Source: Macrostomum lignano (lineage: Eukaryota). Taken from it: 64,000 nucleotides of DNA. Numbering within the stretch: position 1 is the stretch's first letter; each line of letters begins with the position of its first letter. Below, one piece after another: positions 16,580 to 46,226 of this stretch. Location: positions 62,001 through 126,000 of the forward strand of contig NIVC01002694.1 in NCBI GenBank assembly GCA_002269645.1. Direction: 5' to 3'. The translations under genes were made by a program, and so were the position numbers. Under the pieces are notes generated by a model that made no database searches, was not told the DNA's origin, and saw only the letters and a program-made list of their open reading frames with translations.

Positions 16580-17405
16580 TGTCACGTTATTGGCGTAGCG
16601 GCCAGCTATGCGGTGACCCTTAAAAGGGCCGTTTTAGTCCCAAAATAAGTTGAAGTCAATTCTTGTAAAGCGGATTTTGTAGCGGAGCACTTGGCGATAA
16701 AGGCAGGAACTGCCGTAGTTGTCTTTATTGTTAATATCAGTATTAAGTTGGTTGTTACTGGCAATAAACAGACTATAGCTTTCTGGGCACTGGCGGCTGC
16801 AGCAATGGGTTGAATATAATTTGGATATGAAGTCAAGTGGCAGGCGAATGACACAATGGCGACGTGACGTGAGCAGTGGCTATGAGCACCGTGAAGGCAG
16901 TGAAACGTAGTGGTGAGTAGGCGTCGGTCGTGGCGTGAAACAGTCAAGTAAGTGTGTGAGCAGGCTGGCCCAGACAGAAGGGCCGTGGTGAGAAATAAGG
17001 AGGCTCGAGGCAGCCAGACAAACAGATAAGACAGCTAAGAGGCCGCAGGGAAGGAAACAAGGAACAGGCGGGGAGAGACGAAAAAGGGTGAGGGGTGCCC
17101 GCCGCCAGGCGGGGGTTTAATAAAAGAGCGCAGAGGGGGGTAGCGCGAGCACGAGTGATTTCATTGGCTGGCGAGAGAACTTAAAATTATCGATCGTGCC
17201 AATTTTATACGGTTGCGAGAGAGGATAGCAAAATATACAATGAATTATAAATTGCCACAAAATCGTTGGGCACTACTACAAGTAAACGTCGCAATAAACG
17301 AATGGAAAAGTTTAGTTGAAACGGTGAAACTGAAGGGTTGAATGACTATGGAGAACAGCAGTCCAACGGCCCTTTTCGGGACCACCTTAAACTGACAACG
17401 TCACA
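16580..17405 (-). repeat. 3' LTR
   Basis: Direct repeat of 25634-26459; by eye it differs only in the length of two G homopolymers. Confidence 0.97.
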
Positions 17406-17420
17406 CCCGCCTCCCTTCCG
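17406..17420 (-). promoter_or_regulatory. Polypurine tract
   Basis: Minus strand cggaagggaggcggg directly abuts the 3' LTR. Confidence 0.85.
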
Positions 17421-17879
17421 AAAAAGGATAGGGTCGCGCAAAAAGAAAACCAACACGCGGGGTGACGGCAAGAAAAACACAACGTGACCGCAGTTTATGA
17501 AATTATAGCAGAGTGAATTACAGTGGGGTTGAGTCAGTTTGTATGAGCATATGATTACCGGACAAAATTACAAAGTTCCAAAGGCTACAGACTATTACGA
17601 GAGCAGAACATTACAGGGCAGTAGAACACGGTGAGCACGAGCAATACAACATGGTGGTGTTACAAAAACATTACAAAATACAACAATGGTTACGGAAAGT
17701 AGTGTACGACGGAGCGCGCGGCGCGCGCGAACACAAAACGACAAAGGACGCGCAGAAGTGATACGATGGATGAGGCAAACACAGAACAAGGATGACAAGG
17801 TGGATGAGGCAAAGGATGCAGAGCAGAGGCACGGAACAGAGGCACAGCCCGGACAACTGCGGGCAAACGACGCCAAGCG

Positions 17880-18300
17880 TCAAGGGCGGCGGGACACGGC
17901 GCGGCGCGCCAAGGCGGAAGGGAGAAACCGGCGCAAGAGCGCCCAAGGCGGAGACACGGCGCAGCGCGCCAAGGCAGAGACGGCGCAACGCGCCAAGGCA
18001 GGAAACGGCGCAGCGCGCCAAGGCAGGAGAACGGCGCGGCGCGCCAGGCGGAGAACGGCGCAGCGCGCCAAGGCGGGAAACGGCGCCACGCGCCAAGGCA
18101 GGAAACGGCGACAGGGCGCCACGGCAGGGGACGGCGCCACGCGCCAAGGCAGAGAACGGCGCCACGCGCCAGGCAGAGGATGGCGCTACGCGCCAAGGCA
18201 GAGGATGGCGCTACGCGCCAAAGGCAGAGGACGGCGCTACGCGCCAAGGCAGAGACGGCGCAGCGCGCCAGGCAGGGACGGCGCCACGCGCCAAAGGCAG
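17880..18300. repeat. GC-rich ~22-bp minisatellite in the element's 3' UTR
   Basis: Unit gcgccaaggcagagacggcgca with length variants. Confidence 0.9.
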
Positions 18301-18754
18301 AGAGAGCGTGCGTGCGGTGCGGTGTGTGTGTGTGTAGTGCTTACTTTTAGTTTACTTTTAGTTTACTTTTGAATATTTGAGCTAAGGCTAATGTCTTATC
18401 TACTATTTGTTTCTAGCGCCGTAGTGTATTCTATAGACTACGGCAACGCCGACCAGGTGCAGTCGGAGTTGGGTGCTGCGATATTATATATATTCTTGCG
18501 TTAGAACAATATAGTATTTATACTGTCGGCATATTATGCTAATTCTGCTAGCGTTTTATTTTTATTTTATTTATTTTAGCTATATAAATTATCAAATTGC
18601 AATGTCGCCGCAGTTTATCCCCTTGACTACGGTGGTTGGCTGTTGGCTGGTACAGCTGTGGAAGTTGTGCACACTAGTATCTGGCAGTGAGTAACAGCTG
18701 TGGCTTGTGTTTTGTGGCTTGCGGCTGGCAGATGCCGCAGGGACCTGTGACCAG

Positions 18755-18962
18755 CAGGTGCCACAGGAGGTAGTTTTACGCCTTGCCCGGGGCGTGAGCT
18801 TGCGGTCTACAGGTGCCGCAGAGACCTGTGGCTGACAGGTGCCACAGGAGGTAGTTTTACGCCTTGCCCGGGGCGTGAACTTGCGGTCTACAGGTGCCGC
18901 AGAGACCTGTGGCTGACAGGTGCCACAGGAGGTAGTTTTACGCCTTGCCCGGGGCGTGAAAA
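18755..18962. repeat. 81-bp tandem repeat (~2.6 copies) just downstream of pol
   Basis: caggtgccacaggaggtagttttacgccttgcccggggcgtga... recurs at 81-nt spacing. Confidence 0.9.
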
Positions 18963-18970
18963 ACTGGCGG

Positions 18971-21900
18971 TTAGTGTCTGCTTCCCCACTGCTGGAGCAG
19001 GTCGGACACTTGACAGGTCCGGTACCTGACAGGCGGGCGGATGGGGCGTCCGTACCTGGATCTGGGTACGTCAGCCGGGGCTGGTGGCTCAGCTGCTTGC
19101 GCAGCGACTGGATTCGCAGCAATCTCAGGTGGTTCTAATTGCTCGGAGGAAGGGTCCCCCAAGGAAGCCGTGTACAGCGACTCTGAGCTGTCTTGGCTGT
19201 GGCTGGTGTCAGTGTCTGTGCTGTCAGTGTCAGTGTCTGGTTGTGGCTGTCCCTCAATAGCTACAGCATCGCCAGCTTCGGCGAATGGTTGGCCTTCTCC
19301 CGCTTCAGCTCCCGCCCCCTCCTCAAAGGCGCCTGAAGCTGGCGGTGGTGGATTTGGCCCTGGCGCTCTGCGTGGGCTCTCTGGCCGGGCAGAGGAAGGC
19401 TGGGGAATGGTGACGAGGCTAAGCTCGCTCGCGGGTCCGCTGGGCGGGTTCACACTAGGCGCTGGAGACCTGGCATGGGTGGCCTCACCATACCGGTCAA
19501 CTACGTCTTGGTAAGTGGGCTGTCTGATGCACGGTTTGAGGCGGTCAATGTTGTAAATGTTATGGCGCGGATTTGGCACCCGATCTGCTGGGTTTAGGAG
19601 ACCATACTCGGGGACTAAACGGTAAGTCCGCTCGGAGCAGCGCTGCACTACTCGGTATGGCCCCAACCACACAGCGGGTTCTATGCCCTTGTGGTTCGGG
19701 TTCAAGACCCAGACTAACTCTCCCTCGTGGAACTCAGCGCGGAGGGCGCGGCGGTCGTAATACCTTTTCTGCCTCTCCTGGGCTTTACCCCTAGTGCGGC
19801 GGGCTAGGGCAGAGGTTTCGACTAGCGTGCGGTGCAACTGGTGGGCGTACCTCTCCGGCTGGTAGTGTTCATTTGGCGGTGGATTGTGACAGAGGTCGAG
19901 CGGTAGTTCGAACTCACGCCCGAAGAAAAGTTTGGCTGGAGTAAATCCGGTGGATTCGGCGACTGTGGCACGGATTGACAGGGCGGCCAGGCGGCTGGCA
20001 AGGGGCCAGTCGCATTGTCTCTCAAGACAGATGGCTCTAATCTGGGCTTTCACCGTCTGGATCATCCTCTCAGCTTTACCGTTAGCCTGAGGGCGACGGG
20101 CTGTGATCCGACCCATGTCAATCTGTAGGAGCCTAGTTAATTCTATCATGGTACTATTGATGAAGGCAGTTCCGTTATCAGACACCAGCTGCTCCATCAC
20201 CCCATACCTGGCAACCCATTCAGTCAGGATGGTTGTGGCAGTGGTCTCTGCGCTGACGTCGGGAACAGGGACTACTTCAACAAACCCGGTGAACCTGTCG
20301 ATCATAACCAGCAGGTACTTGTACCCGTCACACTCTTCGAACGGGCCTGCGTGGTCCACGTGGACAACCTGGTTCGGGTAGCCGGACAGTTCTGGTTGCA
20401 TAGGGGCCTTGAGCTTACGCTTTGACTTCTTAGTCTTAGCGCAAACGGTGCATTCGGCCAGGACCCCCTTGACTATAGTATCTAAGTCGGAAATAACGAA
20501 GCGCGCCTTCAGGGCGGCCATCGTCTTGGTGATACCGCAATGGTTCAACTGGCCATGATACTGAAGGACCAGATGACCGACGTCTGCGGTCTCAGGCACC
20601 ACCAGGCGCCTGTTGGCAGTCTTGGCTTTGGAGGATTTGGCTAAGTACAATAGACCCTCGACTACTTCAAGGTCATTGAATTGAGCCCAGAGTGAGCGCA
20701 TTTCCCGGCTACAACCCTGCAGTTCGGCCTTGGACAATGGCTCAGTCTTACACTGGACACTGGCGATTAGGCGCGCCATGTCAACACAGGAGTCCTGGGC
20801 ATTCTGGGCCCAGATGAGCTCAGGTGGCACTTGGGATTCGGTTTCAGGTTGACGGGATTCAGTCTCTGGGCTAGGAACAGCACCGCTAGCAGTAGCGCGG
20901 ACATTCGGCGTTGGTTCAGCCGGGGCATCTGTGTCAGTCTGACACGCTACGCTAATGCCTATGGTCTGGACGCACACCTGACGCAGTTCTCTAGAGGGGG
21001 GCGTACGCCGGTGCTTTGGGTCTTGGTCCAGGAATTTCCCTTTAAATTCCGGAATCTGGCTGCACGTCGGGCAGTCAAAGTGATCGGCTCTGAATTTTGG
21101 CAGTCTACTAAGAGCGTCAGCAGGCACGTGGTCAACGCCTGGACGGTACTGGACTGTGAAATCGTATTCGGCTATTCGTTCTAGAGTGGACTGCTGGACC
21201 TTCAGCGGGTACAGTTCAATGGTGGCAAGCCATTGGGCCAGCATACCAGTGGCATGCTTCTTAGAATGCAGCCATTTGAGCGCGGCCGCGTCCACCCGGA
21301 CAGTGAAAGGCTTGTCTAATAGATAAGGACGGAAATGCTCGAGCATCAGAACGAGCCCTAGCAACTCCCTCATGGTGGCGCAGTAGTTTCTCTGGCTACT
21401 GTTGAATTTTTTGGATGCGTAAGCTATAACTTGCTCTTGGCCATCTGGCCCGAGCTGGTACAGCACACCCCCAGTGCCGTCAAGCGAGCTATCGCAGTCC
21501 AAAATAAATTCGCGCCCTTTGGCAGAGAGGTCTGGATACGCCAGAATCGGTGGTGAACAGAGGCTATGTTTGAGTTCTTGGAAAGCCCGTTCATGATGCG
21601 GTTGCCATAGAAACGGAGCATCCTTTTTGGCTAAGGCATACAAAGGCGTGGCGATGATTGAGAATCGCGGCACGAATTTCCGGTAATAATTCGCAAATCC
21701 CAAGAATGATAGAAGCTGTTTCTTAGAAAGCGGTTTAGGCCAGTCTTGGACAGCCTGAGTCTTCGCTGGGTCAGCCTCAATGCCCCGGCTAGACACAACG
21801 AACCCCAGGAATGCGACCTTGTCCTTAAACAGCTCACACTTAGACGGCTTAATTTTGAGACCGGCTTTTCTAAGCTGCCAGAGGACCAGCGCGAGATGCG

Positions 21901-22945
21901 CGATCATTTGGTCGTTGTTGACAGCCTTAATGATAATGTCGTCTAAATAGATGAGGCTGACCTTCATCAGGAGAGGTCTAAACACCTTGTGCATCAGTTT
22001 CGCGAAATTGGCAGGTGCCGTCTTGATCCCGAATGGTACTACCTTCCAGCGGAAGGTGCCTTGGGGGCAGGCAAAGGCGGTGTAATCTCTAGCCTCCTCT
22101 TTGATCCCTACCTGCCAGTACGCGGAGGTCAGGTCAAGGCTAGAGAATACAGTGGCCCCGGCAAGGCTGTCAAAAGATTCTTCTATGAGTGGCAGAGGGA
22201 AGCTACACGGCTTGATGAGCTTATTGACGGCCCTATAGTCTATGCAAAGGCGTTGAGTGCCGTCCTTCTTCTTGACCAGAACGATAGGCGACACCCAGTC
22301 AGAGTCACACTCCTCAATGACCCCCTGTTCGAGCATCTGCGCTATGTTCTGGTCTAAGAATTCTTTTTGTGCTGGCGTGGTGCGCCTGTATGGTTGCGCA
22401 ACAGGCTTGGCCTTAGGATCTATTAACTCTATGCCCATCTCGTGTAAATTGGTGTGGCCTAAATCTGCGTTTGATCTAGAAATTTGGCTATTGAAGTAGT
22501 TGAGCAGTTTCAAAACGGTGGCGAGTTGGCCCCTAGACAATTTGGCTTGGTCTAGTTGGAACTGCGTTGTCAGCCATTTGGCTAACTCCCTACTAGGCGG
22601 CGGCAGCTTACTGAGTTGGCTGGTGAGGTTAGCTACATTGTCCAGGCTAAAGTCAGACTCCTTCAGGGTCGTCTGAGCTATGACCTCATGACTATCTAAT
22701 TCCTGGAATGAGGCAATTTCTTGCCCCCTAGTTATCTGAATAGGCTGTTCCCCACTGTTGAGCACGCGCACTAGTATGTGGTTAGTATCGCTAACTGAGT
22801 CTAGAGTCTTGGCTACCAACTGTTCGGTCTCTGGTCCGAGGATCCGGGACATGACTATACCGGAGGTGTACGGCGAAGAGTCGAGGACACGACTGGGGAT
22901 CAAGGTTTCCGAGTGCGGGGGCAATTCTACGGTGCCGGCGGCCAT
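18971..22945 (-). CDS. pol: Pol polyprotein (dUTPase-like N-terminus, reverse transcriptase, RNase H, integrase; no protease, no chromodomain)
   Basis: RT motifs SPIVLVKKKDG, LCIDYR, YLDD; RNase H CDSS...YASK...RELL; integrase HHCC, VDHAGP, SDNG, AER and GPY. ATG at 22945 (the ORF-track start at 22948 is GTG). Confidence 0.97.
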   Translation of the reverse strand: MAAGTVELPPHSETLIPSRVLDSSPYTSGIVMSRILGPETEQLVAKTLDSVSDTNHILVRVLNSGEQPIQITRGQEIASFQELDSHEVIAQTTLKESDFSLDNVANLTSQLSKLPPPSRELAKWLTTQFQLDQAKLSRGQLATVLKLLNYFNSQISRSNADLGHTNLHEMGIELIDPKAKPVAQPYRRTTPAQKEFLDQNIAQMLEQGVIEECDSDWVSPIVLVKKKDGTQRLCIDYRAVNKLIKPCSFPLPLIEESFDSLAGATVFSSLDLTSAYWQVGIKEEARDYTAFACPQGTFRWKVVPFGIKTAPANFAKLMHKVFRPLLMKVSLIYLDDIIIKAVNNDQMIAHLALVLWQLRKAGLKIKPSKCELFKDKVAFLGFVVSSRGIEADPAKTQAVQDWPKPLSKKQLLSFLGFANYYRKFVPRFSIIATPLYALAKKDAPFLWQPHHERAFQELKHSLCSPPILAYPDLSAKGREFILDCDSSLDGTGGVLYQLGPDGQEQVIAYASKKFNSSQRNYCATMRELLGLVLMLEHFRPYLLDKPFTVRVDAAALKWLHSKKHATGMLAQWLATIELYPLKVQQSTLERIAEYDFTVQYRPGVDHVPADALSRLPKFRADHFDCPTCSQIPEFKGKFLDQDPKHRRTPPSRELRQVCVQTIGISVACQTDTDAPAEPTPNVRATASGAVPSPETESRQPETESQVPPELIWAQNAQDSCVDMARLIASVQCKTEPLSKAELQGCSREMRSLWAQFNDLEVVEGLLYLAKSSKAKTANRRLVVPETADVGHLVLQYHGQLNHCGITKTMAALKARFVISDLDTIVKGVLAECTVCAKTKKSKRKLKAPMQPELSGYPNQVVHVDHAGPFEECDGYKYLLVMIDRFTGFVEVVPVPDVSAETTATTILTEWVARYGVMEQLVSDNGTAFINSTMIELTRLLQIDMGRITARRPQANGKAERMIQTVKAQIRAICLERQCDWPLASRLAALSIRATVAESTGFTPAKLFFGREFELPLDLCHNPPPNEHYQPERYAHQLHRTLVETSALARRTRGKAQERQKRYYDRRALRAEFHEGELVWVLNPNHKGIEPAVWLGPYRVVQRCSERTYRLVPEYGLLNPADRVPNPRHNIYNIDRLKPCIRQPTYQDVVDRYGEATHARSPAPSVNPPSGPASELSLVTIPQPSSARPESPRRAPGPNPPPPASGAFEEGAGAEAGEGQPFAEAGDAVAIEGQPQPDTDTDSTDTDTSHSQDSSESLYTASLGDPSSEQLEPPEIAANPVAAQAAEPPAPADVPRSRYGRPIRPPVRYRTCQVSDLLQQWGSRH

Positions 22946-24735
22946 CACTCGTCGAGTTGGAAAATCCCCTTGTCCCCCTCAATGACTGGTACCGACACCC
23001 CTGCTACTAAAGCTCGGCCAGAGTTGAAGTCTAGCAGCATCTCGAAGCTGCGCAGGAAATCCATGCCTAACAGGGCTTCCGTGGTACAGTAAGCAGTGAC
23101 TAGGAATACATGTTGTTTAGTCGTATTACCTAAGTTGATTTCGCAGCGTAGCGACCCTAGGATGTCTACCTGAGAGCCGCCGAAGGCGGTGGCACGCTGC
23201 TTATTGGCACTAGGCGTGAATATGTTATTGACGGGGTCAGCTGCGACCAGTTTGGCTTTCACGTCAGCACCCATGATGCTGGCATTGGCGCCTGAGTCTA
23301 GACAGGCCAGAACTTTAGAGTCTCCTACTCCTAGCTGCACGAAATAGCTAGACTCAAAGGTGTCAGCTGTGTACCCCCCTTGTCGGCATTGTGGATCACT
23401 GTCCCCTGGCTGAGGTTGCACATTACAGGCCTTGTCGTGCTGGCGCCCGGGGTCGACCTGGCGCTGGAATTTCACCCTAGTCCCCCTAAGGCGGTGCTGC
23501 TCGACTAGGCTACGCAGGCTGGGAGACAGTTGGCTAATGTGAACGAACAATTTCTCTGGCAGGTGCTCAGATTGGATGAACCCGTAATTCTGAGACCATG
23601 TGGCAATGGTTCCTAGTTCAGTCGTGACTTTTCCACGGCTGGGCTGCTGATTTTGGCTCCCCCGGGGCTGCTTTGGCGACTGTGGCCTCGGCGAGGGCGA
23701 TGGACAGTCAGCGATCAGGTGATCGGTCTGGCCGCATCGATGGCAAGCCCGCGGAGGGCGAGGAGCTGGCCTAGGTTGTCTATAGGTTTGGCTAACTTGT
23801 GGTGGGCCCCCAGTGGGCTCTGTGCGAGCGGGCCCCTGATTGGTAGTGACAGGCGGAGTGGTCTGGCTTAATCTATTGGCTTGGTCGGTCACCATCTTCT
23901 CAAGCTCAGCGACCCTCTGTTCTAACGCTTTCTTCTCAGCGTCAGGTTCTATGGCACGAACCTTGGCTATAGTAGAAGGCACGTTCAGAAGCTGGCGGAC
24001 CCCGACAAGATCTTTGGCCTTCTGCATCAGCTCTTCTGCAGAGGTGGCACTGTCGGTTTCCTGATCCCATAAGAGGAGCTTTTCGGCGAGGTCCTTATCC
24101 CTCAGCCCATGGCAGAATCTGGCCTTGAGTAGGGGCTTCGCTTCAGCGAGCGAGAGACCCGCTAGTCTAGAATAGGAGACCAGTCTGTCGAAGAAATCAG
24201 ACATCTGCTCATTATGAGATTGGGCGGCAGCAACTAATTCTACGTAGGCCTTGTCCTTCTTCTTGGCATCGGTGTACCTTTCCCTGAGCAGCCGAAGCGC
24301 AGATTCGAAAGGCAACTGGTCACACCGGTAATTAAGATATACCTCTTGGCATTCGGCTGACAGCAAAGATACGAGAATGGCGGACTTCTGGTCCTCAGGA
24401 ACGCGGCAAGTGGCTAGATACGAAGTAAGCTGAGCTTCCCACGTATCAAAGTTCATCTTCGGCTGATAAGCGATTGGAGGGCGAAGGCGTATGTCTGGCT
24501 TCGCAGGCGGCGAGGAATTTGGCGCTAATGGCGAGGAAACAGCGAGACGCTCTTCGAGCATCCGGTGAAGAGAGGCTAAGGTTTGAGTCAACAAGAGTTG
24601 CTCACTAGGAGCTGGCGCGGCGGCAGCAGCTGCGCCTGCTGGCTGCTCGCCGGCATCGACTGCGTCCTGATCTGGCACGGCGGCATCTCCGTCAGCCAAT
24701 GACGCTGCGGCATGGTTGTCCCCGTTGTCGGACAT
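22945..24735 (-). CDS. gag: Gag-protease (capsid-like region, CCHC knuckle, cold-shock domain, aspartic protease)
   Basis: ATG start; CHRCGQTDHLIADC (23704-23745); GTIATWSQNYGFI...LFVHIS (23413-23619); protease LDSGA (23290-23301) and LLGMDFL. Confidence 0.95.
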   Translation of the reverse strand: MSDNGDNHAAASLADGDAAVPDQDAVDAGEQPAGAAAAAAPAPSEQLLLTQTLASLHRMLEERLAVSSPLAPNSSPPAKPDIRLRPPIAYQPKMNFDTWEAQLTSYLATCRVPEDQKSAILVSLLSAECQEVYLNYRCDQLPFESALRLLRERYTDAKKKDKAYVELVAAAQSHNEQMSDFFDRLVSYSRLAGLSLAEAKPLLKARFCHGLRDKDLAEKLLLWDQETDSATSAEELMQKAKDLVGVRQLLNVPSTIAKVRAIEPDAEKKALEQRVAELEKMVTDQANRLSQTTPPVTTNQGPARTEPTGGPPQVSQTYRQPRPAPRPPRACHRCGQTDHLIADCPSPSPRPQSPKQPRGSQNQQPSRGKVTTELGTIATWSQNYGFIQSEHLPEKLFVHISQLSPSLRSLVEQHRLRGTRVKFQRQVDPGRQHDKACNVQPQPGDSDPQCRQGGYTADTFESSYFVQLGVGDSKVLACLDSGANASIMGADVKAKLVAADPVNNIFTPSANKQRATAFGGSQVDILGSLRCEINLGNTTKQHVFLVTAYCTTEALLGMDFLRSFEMLLDFNSGRALVAGVSVPVIEGDKGIFQLDE

Positions 24736-25126
24736 TGTGTAAGGTTGAGTGAGACAAATGAATCAAGCGTGAACGAAAATAAGGCTCCAGAGAAAACGAA
24801 TTGAGGTTGATGACGCGAGAGAGACGAGAGAGATTGCGTCCTACTAACAAAATACGTGCCTGACAGGGGCAAACCGCAAAAAGCCTATAATAGGGGAGAG
24901 TCCTATCACGCAAACCACCCAGACTAACTGTCAGGCAATAGTCCCTACAAACAATCAGCGCACAGCGTAACCTGGCGTGGCTTGGCACACGCAGCGGAGC
25001 TATCTTGGCAGAGCGTAAGCTCGAGCTCAACGCAGTTGACAGCGCGCGTTGCTCAGGGCGACGACCAGCGACGACTCGCGGCGACGAGCGAAGACCGGCC
25101 GAGCAGTCAGGACCCCTGGGCCTGAC

Positions 25127-25620
25127 GTGGCACAGGCTCTCGCAGCCTTGCGGACCGAACCTCAGGCGTGGCACAGGCTCTCGTAGCCTTGCGGACCGAA
25201 CCTCAGGCGTGGCACAGGCTCTCGTAGCCTTGCGGACCGAACCTCAGGCGTGGCACAGGCTCTCGCAGCCTTGCGGACCGTCAGGCAGAAACGTGGCAGG
25301 CCGGCACTCAGTCACGAGCCGGCAGAGCTGAGCAGAATCTTGCTGACGCTTGGTTGCGAGCTGGCAGGGCTGAGCAGAAGTCTTGATGGCGCTGATTACG
25401 AGCTGGCAGGGCTGAGCAGAAGTCTTGATGGCACTGACTTAGTTGCGAGCCGGCAGTGCTGAGTAGGAGTCTCGGTGGTGCTGACTTAGTTGCGAGCCGG
25501 CAGTGCTGAGTAGGAGTCTCGGTGGTGCTGACTTAGTTGCGAGCCGGCAGTGCTGAGTAGGAGTCTCGGTGGTGCTGACTTAGTTGCGAGCCGGCAGTGC
25601 TGAGTAGGAATCTCGGTGGG
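25127..25620. repeat. Tandem arrays (41-bp, 42-bp and 47-bp units) in the element's 5' leader
   Basis: 41-bp cgtggcacaggctctcgtagccttgcggaccgaacctcagg about 4 times; 47-bp gacttagttgcgagccggcagtgctgagtaggagtctcggtggtgct 4 times from 25436. Confidence 0.93.
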
Positions 25621-25627
25621 ACCTCCA
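25609..25627 (-). promoter_or_regulatory. Primer-binding site, tRNA-Gln
   Basis: TGGAGGTCCCACCGAGATT is complementary to the metazoan tRNA-Gln 3' end (...AATCTCGGTGGGACCTCCA, recalled); it lies 6 nt from the 5' LTR. Confidence 0.88.
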
Positions 25628-25633
25628 AAATTA

Positions 25634-26459
25634 TGTCACGTTATTGGCGTAGCGGCCAGCTATGCGGTGACCCTTAAAAGGGCCGTTTTAGTCCCAAAAT
25701 AAGTTGAAGTCAATTCTTGTAAAGCGGATTTTGTAGCGGAGCACTTGGCGATAAAGGCAGGAACTGCCGTAGTTGTCTTTATTGTTAATATCAGTATTAA
25801 GTTGGTTGTTACTGGCAATAAACAGACTATAGCTTTCTGGGCACTGGCGGCTGCAGCAATGGGTTGAATATAATTTGGATATGAAGTCAAGTGGCAGGCG
25901 AATGACACAATGGCGACGTGACGTGAGCAGTGGCTATGAGCACCGTGAAGGCAGTGAAACGTAGTGGTGAGTAGGCGTCGGTCGTGGCGTGAAACAGTCA
26001 AGTAAGTGTGTGAGCAGGCTGGCCCAGACAGAAGGGCCGTGGTGAGAAATAAGGAGGCTCGAGGCAGCCAGACAAACAGATAAGACAGCTAAGAGGCCGC
26101 AGGGAAGGAAACAAGGAACAGGCGGGGAGAGACGAAAAAGGGTGAGGGGTGCCCGCCGCCAGGCGGGGGGTTTAATAAAAGAGCGCAGAGGGGGTAGCGC
26201 GAGCACGAGTGATTTCATTGGCTGGCGAGAGAACTTAAAATTATCGATCGTGCCAATTTTATACGGTTGCGAGAGAGGATAGCAAAATATACAATGAATT
26301 ATAAATTGCCACAAAATCGTTGGGCACTACTACAAGTAAACGTCGCAATAAACGAATGGAAAAGTTTAGTTGAAACGGTGAAACTGAAGGGTTGAATGAC
26401 TATGGAGAACAGCAGTCCAACGGCCCTTTTCGGGACCACCTTAAACTGACAACGTCACA
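25634..26459 (-). repeat. 5' LTR
   Basis: Direct repeat of 16580-17405; the minus strand carries a CCAAT box, a TATA-like motif and AATAAA. Confidence 0.97.
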
Positions 26460-31451: not shown

Positions 31452-32754
31452 CTGGAAAATAGATAGGTGGCTAGAAACAAAATAGAAAAGAGCACCAGTA
31501 CTCCACAATAGAGAAGATTAATTTTGGCATTCCTATCGCTTCGTACAAAGAACCACCCACTACTGGTCCCATAAAAAGGCCGAATGAAGTGGCAGAGTTC
31601 GACGTGCTCGAGATCAAATTGATAGTGGCAGCGTTGTCTTCAAAGCCATGTCTGCACGCCTCCTCTAAACAAAGTGCGTAGATCGGAACCATTGAAGCGC
31701 TAACGCCAATACCCATTAATATCAGGCCGGCAATCAAAGTCACGAGGCCGAAGCGAACTGGTATTAGAAGTCGAGGAGGATCAATTAAGAACATGCTTAA
31801 TGCGCAACACAGAATACCAAAGAAAGCGATGCCGGCACCCCATTTCATGTAGTCAGATAGATATCCGAACAGAATAGCGCAAAGACTCAAAGAAAAAAAC
31901 GGAATCATTAGCAGCAGCCCAATAACGGAATGCGAAAATTCAAATTTATCTAGCAAAAACGGCTCTATCACTACGCATATTGTGTCCTCAAGTATTCCGA
32001 TGATAAAAAACGTCAACATAATAACAACTACTAGTGGGATGCGTAAAAAACTGACGAAAGAAACTGGCTTCTCGTGTCCATCATCGCTGACACTTGGAAT
32101 TACGACAATCGCTGCAAATGCCAATAGTAAGAGAAGACCGCCAACTGTAAGCAATGGCAGTTTGAACCCACCAACATCAAACAGGACGCCACCAATTCCT
32201 GGTCCCAGAGTGTAACCGATCGATAATCCAGTTTCCACAACGCCATTGACAGTTGACAAACGGTCTGGGAAGACGCTGGCAAGGGTGGCAAAGGCGGCCA
32301 CGAACAATATAGAAGCACCAATAGCTGATACGGCACGGAGGATGATGACCAGCACAGCGAATAGAACGCCGTTAGGACAGTACTCCAGAAAGGCGAATAG
32401 TAGCCAACAAACGCTACTAATCAGAAGTCCTCCCACGAAAAGAATTTTGTTTCCTATTTTAGTGCTAATGAAGACAACAAATGGACTGAATATGAAGTTA
32501 ACAAGCTCAAAGACTCCGAATAGCAGTCCAGAGACAGTTATTGATATTCCTTTGGACAAACATACTCCGGGAAAGAATGGCGAAATCACAGAGGAGGACG
32601 CGCATACAAGCATGAATGAAAAGAAGCTTGTGGCCAATATTAATATTGAAGAGATGCTGAATCGCGATGGCCTTAGCTTAGTCAAGCAGTGACAACATTG
32701 AGACAAGGTGTCCTCACTTTTCTTATCAACCAATAGAGCTGTCTCCGTGGACAT
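31452..32754 (-). CDS. SLC18B1: MFS transporter, SLC18B1-like, copy 1 (apparent 1-nt frameshift near 31511; terminal exon not found)
   Basis: 427-aa ORF of MFS helices with SPFFP, ETGLSIGYTLGPGIGG, GGFKLP. The paralog-matching last helix and the AG|gtaagc donor are in a shifted frame. Confidence 0.8.
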
Positions 32755-33266
32755 TGCTGATTATTTACATGTACTGTCTTCGTCCGAAAAGACTGAAATA
32801 TTAGTCTGGATAGAACTTTTTCTATGTTATGCTACTGCTGCTAGTTAAAGGCTCTGATCGTCTATTTATAAAAAAAACTAGTTTCTGCTAAATTGGCCTT
32901 GAGACTTCAATTAAAAATGCAGTTTGGCGTTTTTACCGTTGACAAATGTCGATGAACTGTTGAAGGAAAAAAGGTCTACATTACATAAAATTCTTCAAAA
33001 GAACACCAAAACCTATATATTCCCTTTATATATACACCAGCTATTTTCATACACGTAGACACTATTTAACAGTAGAAACGAGCTACTAAATACTATAACT
33101 ATAGTTGTACGCTCGTATCCATATATTGTAGTGACTGGCTGCTAACTAGCTATTCAGCAGCATTCACTAGCTTTCCCTAAGGGTGCTGTGATCCGCTGCA
33201 CAGTAGCTCAGTCCACCTGATCTAGTGAGAGAGATACCCTGTGCTGGGCCTAAGTGTTTACTGCCC

Positions 33267-37903: not shown

Positions 37904-39523
37904 TCAGGCACTTGATGCAGCAGCACCAAAGCCACCAAAGCGATTGGCGCGAGGTGACTCAATAATTTGCACAGTATATTGATAGCTATAATGCGACGCT
38001 AGGCATGAGATGCTGGATCGTCGACTGCGCGGAAATAATGAATGTTCAATAGCTGCTGGGCTGTCTACTGTACTGGCTGGGCATGGTACATCTGCTGAAG
38101 CCTTCGGAGACTCAGCCAGTTTGACATTCTTATATCTATAATGTATTGGCGACTTCAAGTAAGGATTTTGCAAACTAAGCGTTATAACGACAGGAAACTA
38201 TGAGGACAAGGCTTACCTGCTATAAACACGAGCAATTCCAAGCAGTACCGCGCACACAACAAAGAGTCCAGAGTAGGCAAACAAGAGTTTATCGAAGCCT
38301 ATCGTATCGTACAATCGGCCACCAAGAGTCGGACCAATGAATACGCCAAGAGAGTAAGCCGAATTCGTAACGCCCGACACTAAATTTATTGTTGCAATAT
38401 TTTCATCCATTCCATTTGCATAGGCGGCGTCAAGGCAAAGTCCGTAAACGGGAATCATCACTGCCGAGGAGCCCAAACCGACCAATACTAGAGCTGGCAA
38501 CAAGGTGAAAAGTGTCGGCTTGATCGGCAGCACAAAACTGGCAGGATTGATGAAAAACACACCGATAGTGCAGCCGATCAGGCCAAAAATGAGAACTCCA
38601 ATGCCCCAGCCCATTGAGTCCGTCAGCCTTCCCCATAAAACAGCTGACAATGTGTAAACTAGACTTGGCGTTAGAAAAATCAGACCAATTATTGTGGACG
38701 AAAAGTGGAAAGCTGCAGTCAAATAGGGTTCCATAGTGGCGTCAAGCATACCATACATTGCTCCAGTAGCGGCATAAGAAATCAAAATAGCCAATGCAAT
38801 CGGAATGGAAAAGAACTTTAAAAACGATGCCGACCGATTATGTCCTCCGGATTCCGCGGGTAGAGCTGGCGTAATAAGGTACGCAGCCACTGCCGTGAGA
38901 AGTACTAATCCACCGACAGTAAAAAATGGCAGCCGAAATCCTCCAAGATCATAAAATGCCCCGCCAAGCGCCGGTCCAACCATGTAGCCAAGGCCCAGAG
39001 CCATCTCAACAATACCTGTCACTGTGGACACTTTATCTGGGAAAGAGTGCGCCAAAATCGCAAACGACGATACAAGAAATATTCCGCCACCAAATGCACC
39101 GATTCCTCGAGTTAGGAGGCACATTATTGCAAATGTGGACCCATTAGGACAGTACTCTAGCACTCCGAACAGAACTGAGCACGTGCCGCAAATGAACAGG
39201 CCGCAAATGTAGACAAACCTATTACCGACATGGGCAGCAATGTGCACAACAAACGGACTACTAAGAAATATCATTAGCTCAAACTCTCCAATAATTATGC
39301 CGGTTAGTGTCAATGATATACCTTTGGCTTCCGCTGCGCCTGGAAAAAATGGACTCAAGACTGAGAAGGATAGAGCGGCAAAAAAGTTCGAGACTGACAA
39401 AGTGATTAACAGAAATATGTTGGCGCCGCGATATGTCGATGATGATTCACTGTTCTCGGCGCTTTCACTGATGTCACTGGCACCGTTTGCAATCAGGGGA
39501 GATATCTCGTCTTTGTCCGCCAT
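37904..39523 (-). CDS. SLC18B1: MFS transporter, SLC18B1-like, copy 3: complement(join(37904-38174,38217-39523))
   Basis: Intact MFS ORF (SPFFP, EMALGLGYMVGPALGG, GGFRLPF). A 42-nt GT-AG intron joins the C-terminal ORF in phase. An upstream in-frame ATG at 39634 is an alternative start. Confidence 0.88.
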
Positions 39524-40345
39524 TGAAGAGGAACATCCTGAAACAGTCAGTTGGATTGATTGACGATAAAGTTTAGTAACTACACTGAAGAAAACAGAAA
39601 GTAATTCAAGCCTAGACGAACACAATTCTGACATCAAGTGGAATATTATGAGATATTTCTATTATTAAGGTTCTTTTTTACGAATTCGAAAGTTGTGACA
39701 TTCAATAATAATAAAAAAATAATACGAAAATCGTCGAAAAAATAATGTCGAGTATATTTTATTCAAAATGTAGAAAAATATATGAATTTATCCGAATACA
39801 CTCTAGCATAGAAAGAACATTGAAAATAGTTTTTAATTTGGTCTCAAAGTCACAGACAATTATTCGCGGGTTTATTCATTGCTTTGTTGTCGTAGATTCG
39901 AATCACAAGAAAAAATGCACTTTTAAATGATATTTGTGAATTGATATATGTTCCGACACTTAAGAAATTTTCTTCTGACAAAATGCCATTTCTAATGCTG
40001 AAATTTTGAGCTACAGTTTGCTAAAATGATTGGCAAATAGCAAATACGATTATTATTTTTATGCGCACCGAGGAATACCGTACCGTACAAGCATGTAGAT
40101 AGTGAATTCAAAATAAATAATCACATTAGCTACACGAGAAGAGATAGTTCAGTCCGACGAAGACATGAAACTTGGAAGTCTCGATTAGATAGAGGCAAAA
40201 CGTAGAAGAAAAATTGTCAAGGATTAAAAACTTCGCAAAATGTATCAAAACTATTGATTAAACACCAAGCATTTTCTTTTTGAGAGACTAAAATTTTAAT
40301 AAACTATATATTAAATTACACGATAACGCACTTAAGTTACAAACT

Positions 40346-42662
40346 CTAGACCGTATTACCAATTGATCCATAATTATTATTTGCCTCGTTGCGACCATCG
40401 CGATCAATTAAGCAGTCAGCCGACTGACTAACTGGGCCAACTATCGCAGGTGAGCGGCCGTCCTCGCCCTCTTCGTTAACTAAAAATGACACGCCTCGCG
40501 TCTCGCGGCGCATAAAGCCGCGATTCTGCCGCACTGGCCCAATTAGGCAGATCAAAGTTGCCAGGCCGAATAGGCCGCTGTAGCCGGTGAGGACCCAGGC
40601 TAGACCGAATCTGAGCATATTGTTTAATAAAACTGTGTCAGATTACGTTAATTCACCTCAATTGGCACTTTTTTTTATCAATTGGCAAAATCAGACATAA
40701 CTTTATTCCCCATAGAAAAGCTGGAATGAAAAGCACTGATTCGTAGAAAGAGCCAAAAACATAAATGCCCAAGGGTGAGTTCCCAGATTATCACAATGAG
40801 CAGGCGGGTTGTAGGACGATGTGGTCGCTAATGCAAGAGTGTGTGTACTATACGCAGGCACACATTGATGCATAGACAGACTCAAAGAGGGACTCTAATC
40901 GTCAGCCATGTAGTGTTTGGACTTTAAGAGGGGAGCTGGCCATCATGGGTGTGAAACGCACGACAAACCCCCATAGCTAATTGTCGTGCTCAAGCCCCAA
41001 ATGAATGTGACCAAATGGAATCGAACCAGGGGTCGTGACGCAATAGTGGGACGCGTTTATCGTCTGCCTATTTCCTTATCGCGATGGCATGTAACCTAAC
41101 TTTTTAGACTTATATATAATAAACTTATTGAGTAACTCTTTAACCTGAAGGAATAGCTTATAAACTAAATGGCCTCACGGTGTTCTCTTACTGTTTTCCT
41201 AAATTTTGGGTCGTTGTAAAAGTAGCAGTAAGCTGAGGTTTGGTGGAAATTAAATGAATATTCATCTTAAGTGCACTATGCAATACTTAATTGGATTGAT
41301 AGAACTAATCAGTGTGCGGTATATAGTAAAAACCATTTATAAAAACGAACTTTTTTGGACTATATATTTATCGGTTTTTTACATGGTAATGGTATTCCAG
41401 CCATAAGATTAGGTAATCTAGCTTAGTTCCGAACTTGAGTTTGACCAATGTCAAATGGTTTATTCCGTGCTAATGAAAAACACTCACTTGTCTAAAGCCA
41501 CACCACCAAGAGTTGGGCCAACAAATGCTCCAAAGGCGAATGCAGTATTAACTAATCCAGAAACTACAGAGTAAGTTGTTAAACTTCGATCAAAGCCTCG
41601 CTTATAAGACTCCGTAGCAATCAAATTAAACACTGGCACAACAACAGCCGAGCAGGCTAAACCAACCACGACAAGAGCGGCAATAAGTGATGGCAAGTTT
41701 GTATCGTAAGGTAGAAACGGTGCCGGATAGACGAACAGCAAGCAAACAGAGAATGCTGCCAAGCCGCCAATCATAATAGGCAGACCGGCGCCGCGCGAAT
41801 CGACTAGGTAGCCCCATAGAGCGGCAGATATAGAATAGATCAAAGCGGGCAGGAATAGCATCAGCCCAACAATAACTGGCGAGAAATGAAATTTGGCGGT
41901 TAAAAATGGTTGAAAGCTGACATCTACGAAGCCAAGAAAAGAGCTAGCAACGCACATTCCAAATAGAGTAGCAAGACAAAAGGGTTCTCTAACAAGCGTC
42001 CAGACAGATTTTGGTCGAGAACCATCAATGTTAGGGTCGTCGTTTACAAGCGACGGCATAACGCACAACGACAATAGTACAACCAGCAATAGGAAGCCGC
42101 CAAGACTAACAAATGGTAATTTAAATCCGCCAAGTTGAAATAATGCGCCGCCAATAACTGGGCCAACCATAAAGCCAAGTCCGCCAGCGGTCTCCAGCAG
42201 ACCGAATACTGTTGACAATCGATTTGGAAATAGTCTGGTAGCTATGGAGAATGAGGACACAACAAACATGCTAGTGCCAATAGCGGACACGCCGCGGGTT
42301 AGTAGGCACATAACGGCGAACACAATTCCAGGAGGGCAGTACTCCAATGCGCCAAACAGTATTGAGCAGACGCTGCATATGACAAGACCCCAACTGTACA
42401 CGAATCGTCCGCCAATGCTGCTGGTGAAAGCGCCAACAAGTGGACTGCACAGACAGATTACTAATTGAAATTCGCCAACTATAATACCTGTCATAGTAAC
42501 CGAAAGGCCTTTCAAATTGGCTTCTCTGGGAAAGAACGGTCCGAGAACTGAGAATGCTGTTGAGGTAAAGAAGTTTACTAAAGCTAAGCTGGCTAATAGT
42601 ACATTGCGTCGAGCTCGACTGAGGCCAGCCACCTCACCGCTAGTTGAAGCCAATTGGATTGC
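40346..42662 (-). CDS. SLC18B1: MFS transporter, SLC18B1-like, copy 4: complement(join(40346-40610,41488-42662)); start exon uncertain
   Basis: GPFFP, ETAGGLGFMVGPVIGG, GGFKLPF. The AA|gtgagt donor and ctcag|A acceptor are phase-compatible and supply the last helix. Confidence 0.85.
40880..41075 (-). mobile_element. tRNA-derived SINE-like element in the MFS copy 4 intron
   Basis: The minus strand has an A-box-like taggcagacgataa and B-box ggttcgattcc (41017-41027), but no cloverleaf. Confidence 0.45.
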
Positions 42663-43383
42663 CTGTAAAATAAACAAACGGGTTGAATGATTGCAGATTT
42701 TCTGAGGGTGCTGTAATTCTATAATGCTGTACTTATTAGTATTGCTAGAGTAAAGTTCAAATCCTATGTGAAACCGATTGAAATTGAGTCGATTTCTCGA
42801 ATTAGGCTCTCGAATTATCTCAGTCTGACAAAACTCCATGGTCATGCATTGGAAATCTGGATGCCCAATGGTTAGATTTGCTTGTCAATTAGGCCAGTCT
42901 CATAGTCAGAAATTCGCACGCATGGCCCAACCTATCTTTATTCTCTTCTCACTGATTTTACAGTTGGAACTATTTCTAATCAATTTTGAGGCTAAAAAAG
43001 ATTGTTAAAAACGATAGTGAAAAGTCGATGCTGTTAAAAGTTACCTTTGTGTATATTTAGCATATTAATTAATTATCATTAAACTGACTGCAACCGATCG
43101 CACACTTCTAAACCAATTGCAATTATGCTATTGCGGCTCCTAAAGTGGAAAAACAGATAAACTGCAGTGAAATACAACATACATAGATACGCTCGTATTG
43201 TACAATGCAAAATTAATAATTTGTTTCTTTATACATCGCTTTGCCTTGCATGAGATGAGAGCAGACAAACAATTCATAACCGATAATAACAAGCAAGGTC
43301 AATGACAACAAGCCGCGTTAATGCGCTCTACTCGTAAATATAGAGTACGTGCGCTCCACCCTTTCATGTGATTTCATATAAAG

Positions 43384-44438: not shown

Positions 44439-45595
44439 TTAATCAGAACCCGTCGACTCAGAAGGCTTAGTAAGTGGCTTGGACGCCTCAACAACACTTT
44501 CAGCTGCAGGAGCATTATCAAACACTTCATCGTCAATGTCTGCCACCGTTTCATTGACTTTTTCGTCTACACTTTTCTCGTCACTCGGTTTCGTTGGAAT
44601 TGCAGCACCGGCTTCAATATTGTCGTTTGTTGATTCTTCAGTAGCAGCGGTAGTTTTAATCGCATCTGCAACTGAATCAGCAGCTACTACTTTGCTAACC
44701 GGAGGCGTATTATTACTAGTAGTAGCAGTATCAGCTTCAGATTCGCAGGCGGCGGCAACTTTGGCGGTTTCTTCAGCAGCTTCCGCTACAGATACAGCGC
44801 CAGTTTTGTAGTCCGCAATCGCAGCATCCGATGAAGCTGTGCAATCGCCGGCTCCGCAACCGCTGCTGCTACCGCCGTCGCTTTCAATATCGTCAGATTC
44901 GTCATCAATTTCAGCCGCAGTTGCGGGCGCCTGATCAAAAGCGGCGCCAGACAACGGCGCGCCAACTTCGCTACCCGAACCGGAACAAGAGCCGGAACCG
45001 GACGCTTCTTCAAGATCGTCATCGCCAGACAGCGAATCGTTAGCCATATGATCGGCGGTTGCCGCGCTTGAAACCGAGGCGGCAGCGGCCTCAGCACCGG
45101 CATGCGTCGAGGCCGAAGCGGCGCCGGCTGCGGCGGCGGCGGTGGAATCCGAAGAGTTCGACACAATCATGTCTTCCTCGTCCTGATCGAATACGATTTT
45201 CTGACCAGCCGGATCGATGCAGCTAACAACGCTCAAGCATTTTAGTAGGCCTCGTAGATACTTATCAACTCGGCGATAGTGCTTATTAGGCGATAGGGCC
45301 AATTCGCAGACGCGTTGAATAGTAAATGGGGCGTTAGTGAACTGGTCCAGTGTTGACAGGACAGTCTGGCGGTAGACGCTCAGTTGAAATGTCTCCATAT
45401 TAGGCCTGGGATAATAATCGTCAATAGAAGCCATTGATGAGTCGCTTAAAAAACTTTCAATAGCGGATTCCAATTTGACGCGAATTAGCGGCTTAACCAG
45501 GTGCCAAGGCGCGTTGGTGATGCCACTGCGAGACAGGTTGACCAGATAGTGCTCCAGGTCTGGCGGCACATCGCTTGTTGCTGATTGGGCAAACT
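44439..45595 (-). CDS. PPP4R2: Protein phosphatase 4 regulatory subunit 2 (main exon; short first exon not found)
   Basis: PWHLVKPL and APFTIQRVCEL...PNKHY...DKYLRGL..LSVVS are the PPP4R2 domain, followed by an acidic tail. cacag| acceptor at 45596. Confidence 0.9.
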
Positions 45596-46226
45596 CTGTG
45601 AAAAGATTGATAAACATAACAATTGAAAAAGGCTGTTGAATTGACAATAGGTACTATGAATATCTAGAATACAATTAAGGTTGGGAATCAAACCAAGCTT
45701 CAGTCTTTTACATAACAACTTTAGTCAAACAATTGAGCATGATAGGCAACAAATTACCATCATGAAATTTCCTATCCTGATTGGAAATGTCAAATTATTC
45801 TTAGCATATTGGATATTAAATTCAAATGACATTACAGTATATACCCTATTAGTGGATTGTAGGCCCATATGCAATATTCAAATTGTACAGAAACCCTGCT
45901 TTTATTGCTCAATAGGCAAAAAAACTGAATAAATTCAACTGTGGAAATTTAAATGTAAAAAAAGACAAACTAATATCCAATTCAAAACATTGATCTTATT
46001 TAACCCTTAAAATTACATAGGTACAATAATATAATTTTAACTTAGATCTAAATATACTAGTATAGAAAAGTAACAAAAATCAAGACTTTAGCTTTTTAGA
46101 CAATTGAGATATTGAATGATTCTACCAAAAGGTTAGATTTTTTCATAAGCCCGGCCTAGTATATTCAATAAGCCCCTATCTCAGTGCAACATTGATGAGC
46201 CTTTAAATTTTATTAGCAGTTGAACA

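Follow-up and report, generated by a model that had tools for sequence, protein, structure and literature searches.

Copies of the host histone stem-loop in the LTRs of a Macrostomum lignano retrotransposon branch and alongside the host's histone genes

The stem-loop at the 3' end of histone mRNAs is regarded as exclusive to those ends (PMC10388802). The locus described here raises the question of why a retrotransposon should carry this motif near both ends of each of its long terminal repeats (LTRs), in opposite orientations. The locus lies in a stretch of 64,000 nucleotides from Macrostomum lignano (contig NIVC01002694.1, 62,001 to 126,000 of the forward strand), here called the window, and all coordinates are window positions. 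Neither the element type nor the histone stem-loop is new. Among the titles and abstract starts of the open-access literature, no paper was found on histone stem-loops in LTRs, including the case of this species, whose LTR retrotransposons have reportedly been classified in print.

The element occupies 16580-26459 on the minus strand, as delimited by its LTRs, primer-binding site, polypurine tract and reading frames. It belongs to the Ty3/gypsy group, as the LTRs, both priming sites and the order protease, reverse transcriptase (RT), RNase H, integrase are all present. The 3' LTR (16580..17405) and the 5' LTR (25634..26459) are each 826 bp long, lie on the minus strand and have TG...CA ends, and a 4-bp target duplication, GTAG, flanks the element. 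The polypurine tract (17406..17419, minus strand) was recognized by its sequence and is found at the same place in sister families, and the primer-binding site (25610..25627, minus strand), which we take to be tRNA-Gln-like, is common to the clade. On the same strand, Pfam places a PNMA-type capsid region, a CCHC knuckle, a cold-shock domain and an aspartyl protease in the Gag-protease frame (22945..24762), and RT, RNase H and integrase in Ty3/gypsy order in the Pol frame (18971..22978), the RT region of which matches a database protein labelled Macrostomum lignano at 100% identity. In the window copy the two frames differ over their overlap at 22945-22978; the database protein and several other copies have a single frame of about 1,920-2,060 codons. 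The leader at 25396-25630 contains four copies of a 47-nt unit, including part of the primer-binding site. The neighbours of the element, all on the minus strand, are three MFS transporter frames and a PPP4R2 frame (31471-32760, 38213-39658, 41484-42884 and 44439-45653).

With other Ty3/gypsy (Metaviridae-type) elements it thus shares the LTR ends, the target duplication, the priming sites and the Gag-to-integrase order; it differs in belonging to a clade with a cold-shock domain after the Gag CCHC knuckle, one branch of which has histone stem-loop copies. The cold-shock domain scores 30.7 bits with PF00313, for a Pfam cut-off of 27, and follows the knuckle within Gag residues 338-450. This region is present in 28 of 29 elements tested, all of which had been chosen by that region. 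Lin28 comprises the same two RNA-binding modules, with the order reversed in Gag. A literature search for a Gag combining a CCHC knuckle and a cold-shock domain returned nothing related. The element family is young; the two LTRs differ by two 1-nt indels and no substitution, and the 40 LTR copies scored, of 670 candidates in the host genome, are 97-100% identical.

In the 3' LTR, the sense copy of the stem-loop lies in U5 on the minus strand at 16612..16635 (AAAAC GGCCCT TTTA AGGGTC ACC), and the antisense copy lies at the start of U3 on the plus strand at 17363..17386 (CCAAC GGCCCT TTTC GGGACC ACC). The 5' LTR repeats this arrangement. Its sense copy, in U5 at 25666..25689 (minus strand, hairpin core 25669-25684), precedes the primer-binding site by about 40 nt, and its antisense copy, at 26417..26440 (plus strand, hairpin core 26422-26437) at the start of U3, faces out into host DNA. 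All four motifs were found where an earlier note on this DNA had placed them, and so was an AATAAA, here the predicted poly(A) signal (16724..16729, minus strand), which the note had put about 90 nt upstream of the sense copy and which lies 88 nt from it.

Comparison with the species' own histone genes, proposed in the same note, identified the LTR motifs as copies of the host element. The 24-mer AAAAC GGCCCT TTTC AGGGCC ACC ends all 16 independent H2A, H2B, H3 and H4 genes, obtained by clustering 43 records by flank. The U5 copy is identical to it at 22 of 24 positions and the U3 copy at 20 of 24, so that a deviation at one or two positions, as claimed earlier, holds for U5 (2/24) but not for U3 (4/24). 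Chance would supply 1.3e-8 matches per LTR at up to two mismatches and 4.6e-6 at up to four; a search of the window with the host 24-mer gave two matches at three mismatches or fewer, compared with none in 100 shuffles. Calling the motifs plain subterminal inverted repeats, the fallback of the note, leaves this match to the host element unexplained.

The LTR copies follow the host variant of the stem-loop and not the Rfam consensus line, from which the host histone version departs as they do. With the metazoan histone 3' stem-loop (RF00032, the element of SLBP and U7) they share the 6-bp stem, the U-rich 4-nt loop with U at its third position, the A-rich 5' flank and the ACC 3' flank. They differ from it in lying inside an LTR and not behind a stop codon, in one copy being antisense, in having no downstream element, and in their stems: pair 2 is G-U in the U5 copy, which has A at loop position 4, both in 8/8 LTRs, whereas the U3 copy keeps G-C at position 2 and has its third pair broken by a C-A mismatch. 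The suggested check with Rfam Histone3 came out negative, as the two copies score 20.6 and 19.0 bits, below the gathering score of 34; at that threshold Rfam finds no match in the window. A 1-kb Rfam scan returned four matches, the two best being Histone3, and elsewhere in the host genome 36 of 68 Histone3 matches, among the matches listed, reach 34 bits. The U5 hairpin folds in context (-8.8 kcal/mol, compared with -11.4 for the host element), with pair probabilities of 0.84-0.98 in a 200-nt leader fold of the 5' LTR. The U3 copy forms no hairpin when folded in context. The G-C at stem pair 2 is described as diagnostic in metazoans (bioRxiv 10.64898/2026.10.14.759114).

Both motifs are present in all of 30 near-identical LTR copies, which are too young to reveal selection. 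Conservation was instead read from eight LTRs that are 51-89% identical, came from a protein search or from chance encounters, and belong to elements with RTs 96-100% identical to that of the window; LTRs found by means of the motif pattern were kept out of the test, given their ascertainment bias. The 16-nt U5 core is invariant in all eight and is the second-longest invariant run in the LTR; from there to the LTR end the sequence varies. In the U3 copy, a 10-nt run that takes in the 5' arm and three loop bases is invariant in all eight LTRs, and three LTRs have a 1-nt insertion. These figures are to be read against an LTR in which 36% of all positions are invariant, and by 24-nt windows both motifs are only in the top 11-13%. 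As the U3 copy falls within a conserved terminal zone of the LTR, another cause may preserve it. On the sense strand, every U5 stem variant observed still forms six pairs, Watson-Crick or G-U, and folds in context. Covariation across LTR families, for which the note had asked, is absent in the strict sense, the stem changes being one-sided. The longest invariant run, of 18 nt (16678..16695, minus strand), lies 29-46 nt after AATAAA and is invariant by alignment, a string search finding it whole in 7/8 LTRs and missing L205. Sister family B and a family of solo LTRs share its CCGCTAC part in their LTRs.

The sister clade was collected by protein search with the cold-shock/protease region of one sister family. 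Among 20 element loci, with LTR pairs in 16, a match to the stem-loop within six mismatches occurred in variant N only. Further loci gave no motif at any of five sister loci and both copies at all three family-A loci, and the 393,993 bp of sister-element sequence contain no match to the exact 5' 11-mer of the stem-loop. The RT tree, of 29 rows (drawn without rows D, G2 and X_L202, and with L196/197 and L200/201 not entered), groups the seven motif-bearing elements on a single branch (100/97) that is nested within relatives lacking the motif. Given that the sister families lack it, the stem-loop pair is a derived gain on one branch. Sister families with near-identical LTR pairs manage without the motif. 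The related family known only as solo LTRs has a U3 copy, nearer to the host element, and no U5 copy; a pattern search for its full-length element gave 12 matches, all of them, by contig, at places of another family. Since the histone stem-loop is conserved across animals (bioRxiv 10.64898/2026.10.14.759114), the match to the host element alone gives no capture date.

The motif-free sister families would also fit a neutral capture, in which the LTR picked up scattered pieces of histone 3' ends through template switching and these then hitch-hiked in a young family. The mosaic nature that LTR subfamilies may have could mimic conservation, and two other repeat families of the host also carry the stem-loop, one a dispersed repeat of about 280 bp and the other an inverted-repeat family. 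We nevertheless consider neutral capture unlikely: the U5 core is invariant down to 51% LTR identity while its flanks change, there are two copies, both pointing outward, and the 5'-biased decay and the orientation seen at histone genes, described below, would be left unexplained.

With at least two further host repeat families carrying the stem-loop, its uptake by mobile DNA has occurred more than once. The repeat of about 280 bp (L031, L033-L035, L043, L078, L141, L143, L149, L152, L153, L221, L222) has TGTTG...ACA ends and, about 30 nt in from one of them, a near-perfect stem-loop, the flanks of which match those of the U3 copy over 37 nt at 84-86%. It shows a 5-bp duplication at L153, one copy lies about 180 nt upstream of an Rcd1 gene, and the repeat is possibly the solo LTR of another group. 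The second repeat (L032, L042, L044) has terminal inverted repeats of about 100 bp and contains an H3-like 3' end, in which a perfect stem-loop is accompanied by a word resembling the downstream element. Capture of a whole histone promoter or gene by the element was considered and rejected, as BLAST of the element against 10 stem-loop loci found the motif and simple repeats only.

The copies could in principle be SLBP/U7 cleavage sites that yield non-polyadenylated, S-phase-coupled sense and antisense element RNAs. The flanks and the loop are correct, the U5 hairpin folds, and an SLBP gene is present in the host genome (nine matches, 88 bits). These nine matches (L128-L135) score identically and may represent assembly redundancy or gene amplification. 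At true host ends, ACA or AAA is followed by a GATGYY-like word 8-13 nt after ACC. Allowing one mismatch, this word, derived from the same 16 histone genes on which it was scored, is found at 12/16 true ends and at none of the eight U5 or eight U3 copies. The sequence 3' of the U5 hairpin is not conserved, stem pair 2 of that hairpin is G-U, and AATAAA is kept 88-127 nt upstream of the U5 copy in six of the eight LTRs, with AATAAT in the other two; moreover, an efficient cut in the 5' LTR would sever the genomic RNA before the primer-binding site. Cleavage of this kind is highly improbable in our judgement. A search of the host genome for U7 snRNA with RF00066 gave no match at E values up to 1; U7 is short and fast-evolving, and the missing match is not taken as absence. 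Of the histone-3'-end mimicry proposed in the earlier note, what is supported is that the motifs are derived copies of the host stem-loop, kept across diverged LTRs in a host with an SLBP gene; the U7-type, poly(A)-independent ends find no support, in view of the missing downstream element, the G-U pair in U5, the mismatched and unfolded U3 copy, and AATAAA.

A closer counterpart of the LTR copies was found around the histone genes themselves. Extra, degenerate copies of the stem-loop lie within 1.4 kb of 15 of the 16 histone genes, 510-990 nt before the ATG on the upstream side and 320-1170 nt after the stop codon on the downstream side. An outward orientation, with the upstream copies antisense and the downstream copies sense, is found at 15 of 18 gene sides (p 0.0075); the figure becomes 15 of 19 if the copy between a divergent H2A/H2B pair is scored for both genes, and the rule is broken at 3/18 sides. 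Counted by distinct copies, 20 of 23 point outward (p 5e-4). The loci with oriented accessory copies are L051, L055, L061, L081, L136-L139, L144-L146 and L151. We found no paper on such copies among open-access titles and abstract starts.

The decay of these accessory copies is uneven. In 20 of them, selected on total mismatch alone and irrespective of half, the 5' half has five arm mismatches and the 3' arm has 27. Genome-wide, sites with an intact 5' half and a broken 3' half number 167 (29 in the control), and the reverse 16 (7 in the control); since the 167 include many array members and duplicates, fewer of them are independent. In 19 of 25 extra copies the top of the 3' arm survives. The GATGYY word is present at 1/24 extra copies, and A at loop position 4 is found in 14/24 of them, in none of the 16 true ends and in all eight U5 copies.

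The LTR copies are of this accessory type, with an intact 5' half, a degenerate 3' arm and no downstream element. Judged by the predicted positions of a CCAAT box (17163-17167) and a TATA-like box, TTTATTAA (17117-17124), they also share the outward layout, as this putative LTR promoter (17117..17167, minus strand) lies between both stem-loop copies; each box recurs at the matching place in 7/8 diverged LTRs. Measured from the TATA-like box, the antisense copy lies about 240 nt upstream and the sense copy, with the loop-position-4 A of the host accessory copies, about 480 nt downstream. The LTR copies are thus nearer to their promoter than the accessory copies are to the histone start and stop codons, and the U5 stem has decayed less than most.

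The part of the stem-loop that is kept in the accessory and LTR copies is also the part that SLBP reads. According to PMC10388802, SLBP recognizes the hairpin from its 5' side, G7 being the sole base-specific contact, and its binding weakens about 100-fold when the stem is truncated or G-U-based. For this reason weak SLBP-type sites are the most likely of the readings considered, and we tentatively propose that the LTR copies are weak SLBP-binding sites on nascent RNA that damp transcription out of the unit, a proposal to which we would give somewhat less than an even chance. The antisense U3 copy would then halt divergent transcription from the LTR promoter, keeping it out of host DNA at the 5' LTR and, at the 3' LTR, out of the coding region, where double-stranded RNA would form. 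The sense U5 copy lies about 90 nt beyond AATAAA and would serve as a fallback for the poly(A) site. Given that AATAAA precedes the U5 copy in most of the diverged LTRs, a normal poly(A) end is predicted before the hairpin, and the mature element RNA would end at that ordinary site and not at the hairpin. The weakened U5 stem may permit the full-length genomic RNA to read through the 5' LTR. The element would have gained the copies as a brake both on antisense RNA running into its coding region and on read-through to the host DNA. Such termination would, we infer, proceed by SLBP alone, without U7 cleavage; no supporting paper was found.

Contigs from six sequencing runs (X1, X5, X6, X8, X9, X15), which no record identifies as RNA, were compared with this part of the element, with no separate silent stretch as a control, and are not used here as evidence on expression or 3' ends. 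Single contigs of X1, X5 and X15 span the whole U5 hairpin into the primer-binding side. Among the loose contig ends listed, none was a poly(A) end.

The same conserved 5' half may also be explained by a DNA site, namely a near-palindromic core, AAAA-CGGCCC-TTTT, bound by a host factor that brackets histone genes, so that the LTR would borrow histone-like control of chromatin or transcription. Such a factor might act as a directional boundary, as a road-block terminator or as an activator. We know of no candidate DNA-binding factor for the core. A DNA-binding factor is nonetheless a serious rival, because the full 6-bp stem is present in only 7 of 25 extra copies and because hairpin-less arrays occur in mixed orientation. 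These are tandem arrays of the stem-loop 5' half, in units of about 29-40 nt, between and inside non-histone genes (L238 4738-5146, L239-L243, L245, L253); away from histone genes they are found in intergenic and intronic DNA, in mixed orientation to the neighbouring genes, an arrangement that a linear DNA site explains at least as well. The U3 copy, without a stable hairpin, keeps exactly the core. However, the top of the 3' arm survives in most extra copies and the U5 variants retain pairing on the sense strand only, which argue against a site read in DNA. Furthermore, the core is the part of the histone element read by SLBP (PMC10388802), so no second factor is needed. On balance we regard the DNA site, taken as a whole and with any of these roles, as possible but rather doubtful. 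A general outward rule at non-histone genes was not retained, since the examples, which were not counted, point both ways: antisense copies lie upstream at the Rcd1 gene and downstream at a Hikeshi-like exon and an ankyrin/RING gene, and a sense copy lies between cadherin exons.

The inverted arrangement of the two LTR copies also allows another function, in which the U5 copy at the 5' end and the U3 copy at the 3' end of the genomic RNA would pair to cyclize it for reverse transcription. As with CYC5/CYC3 of Ty1 (PMC7969010), complementary sequences lie near both ends of an LTR-retrotransposon RNA, and here the copies adjoin the primer-binding site and the polypurine tract. The predicted U3-U5 duplex has an energy of -41.4 kcal/mol (z -3.5) in family A and a z of -3.0 in variant N, compared with z values of -1.3 to 1.7 in seven sister families. 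Such complementarity is, however, expected from any two inverted copies of one motif, the U3 and U5 changes in the eight LTRs, read by eye, are not compensatory, the solo-LTR family has a U3 copy only, and the sister families have no such duplex. Set against the Ty1 sites, the copies differ in lying both in the LTR, in originating from a host cis-element, in being absent from sister families and in showing no compensatory change. We consider cyclization very unlikely as their function.

Returning to SLBP, a wider version of that reading can be stated, with appreciably more reserve. The weakened histone stem-loops might form a second, U7-independent fence of histone transcription units on both strands that retrotransposons have taken over; the SLBP of cycling stem and germ cells would bind the LTR copies, stop antisense and read-through RNA that would otherwise feed piRNA silencing, and tie element activity to S phase. 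We hold this version to be conceivable, though on present evidence improbable. In planarian stem cells, stem-loop histone RNAs and a Ty3-like RNA both feed PIWI-bound piRNAs (PMC10954484). By analogy, such a feed would make control of stray LTR transcripts a plausible selective reason for the copies.

Whether the reader is SLBP or a DNA-binding protein, these results point to an undescribed cis-element at histone loci that has been copied by a mobile element. One retrotransposon branch acquired the stem-loop pair and retained it through LTR divergence of up to half, and the oriented accessory copies at 15/16 host histone genes merit a study of their own. Macrostomum lignano is a stem-cell model with RNAi and transgenesis (PMC5730564), so the question is directly testable in the host. 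Libraries of poly(A) sites also exist for the species (PMC5730564). If an SLBP fence has indeed been taken over, this would be the first mobile element to exploit the histone-mRNA machinery, and SLBP would have a new role outside 3'-end cleavage.
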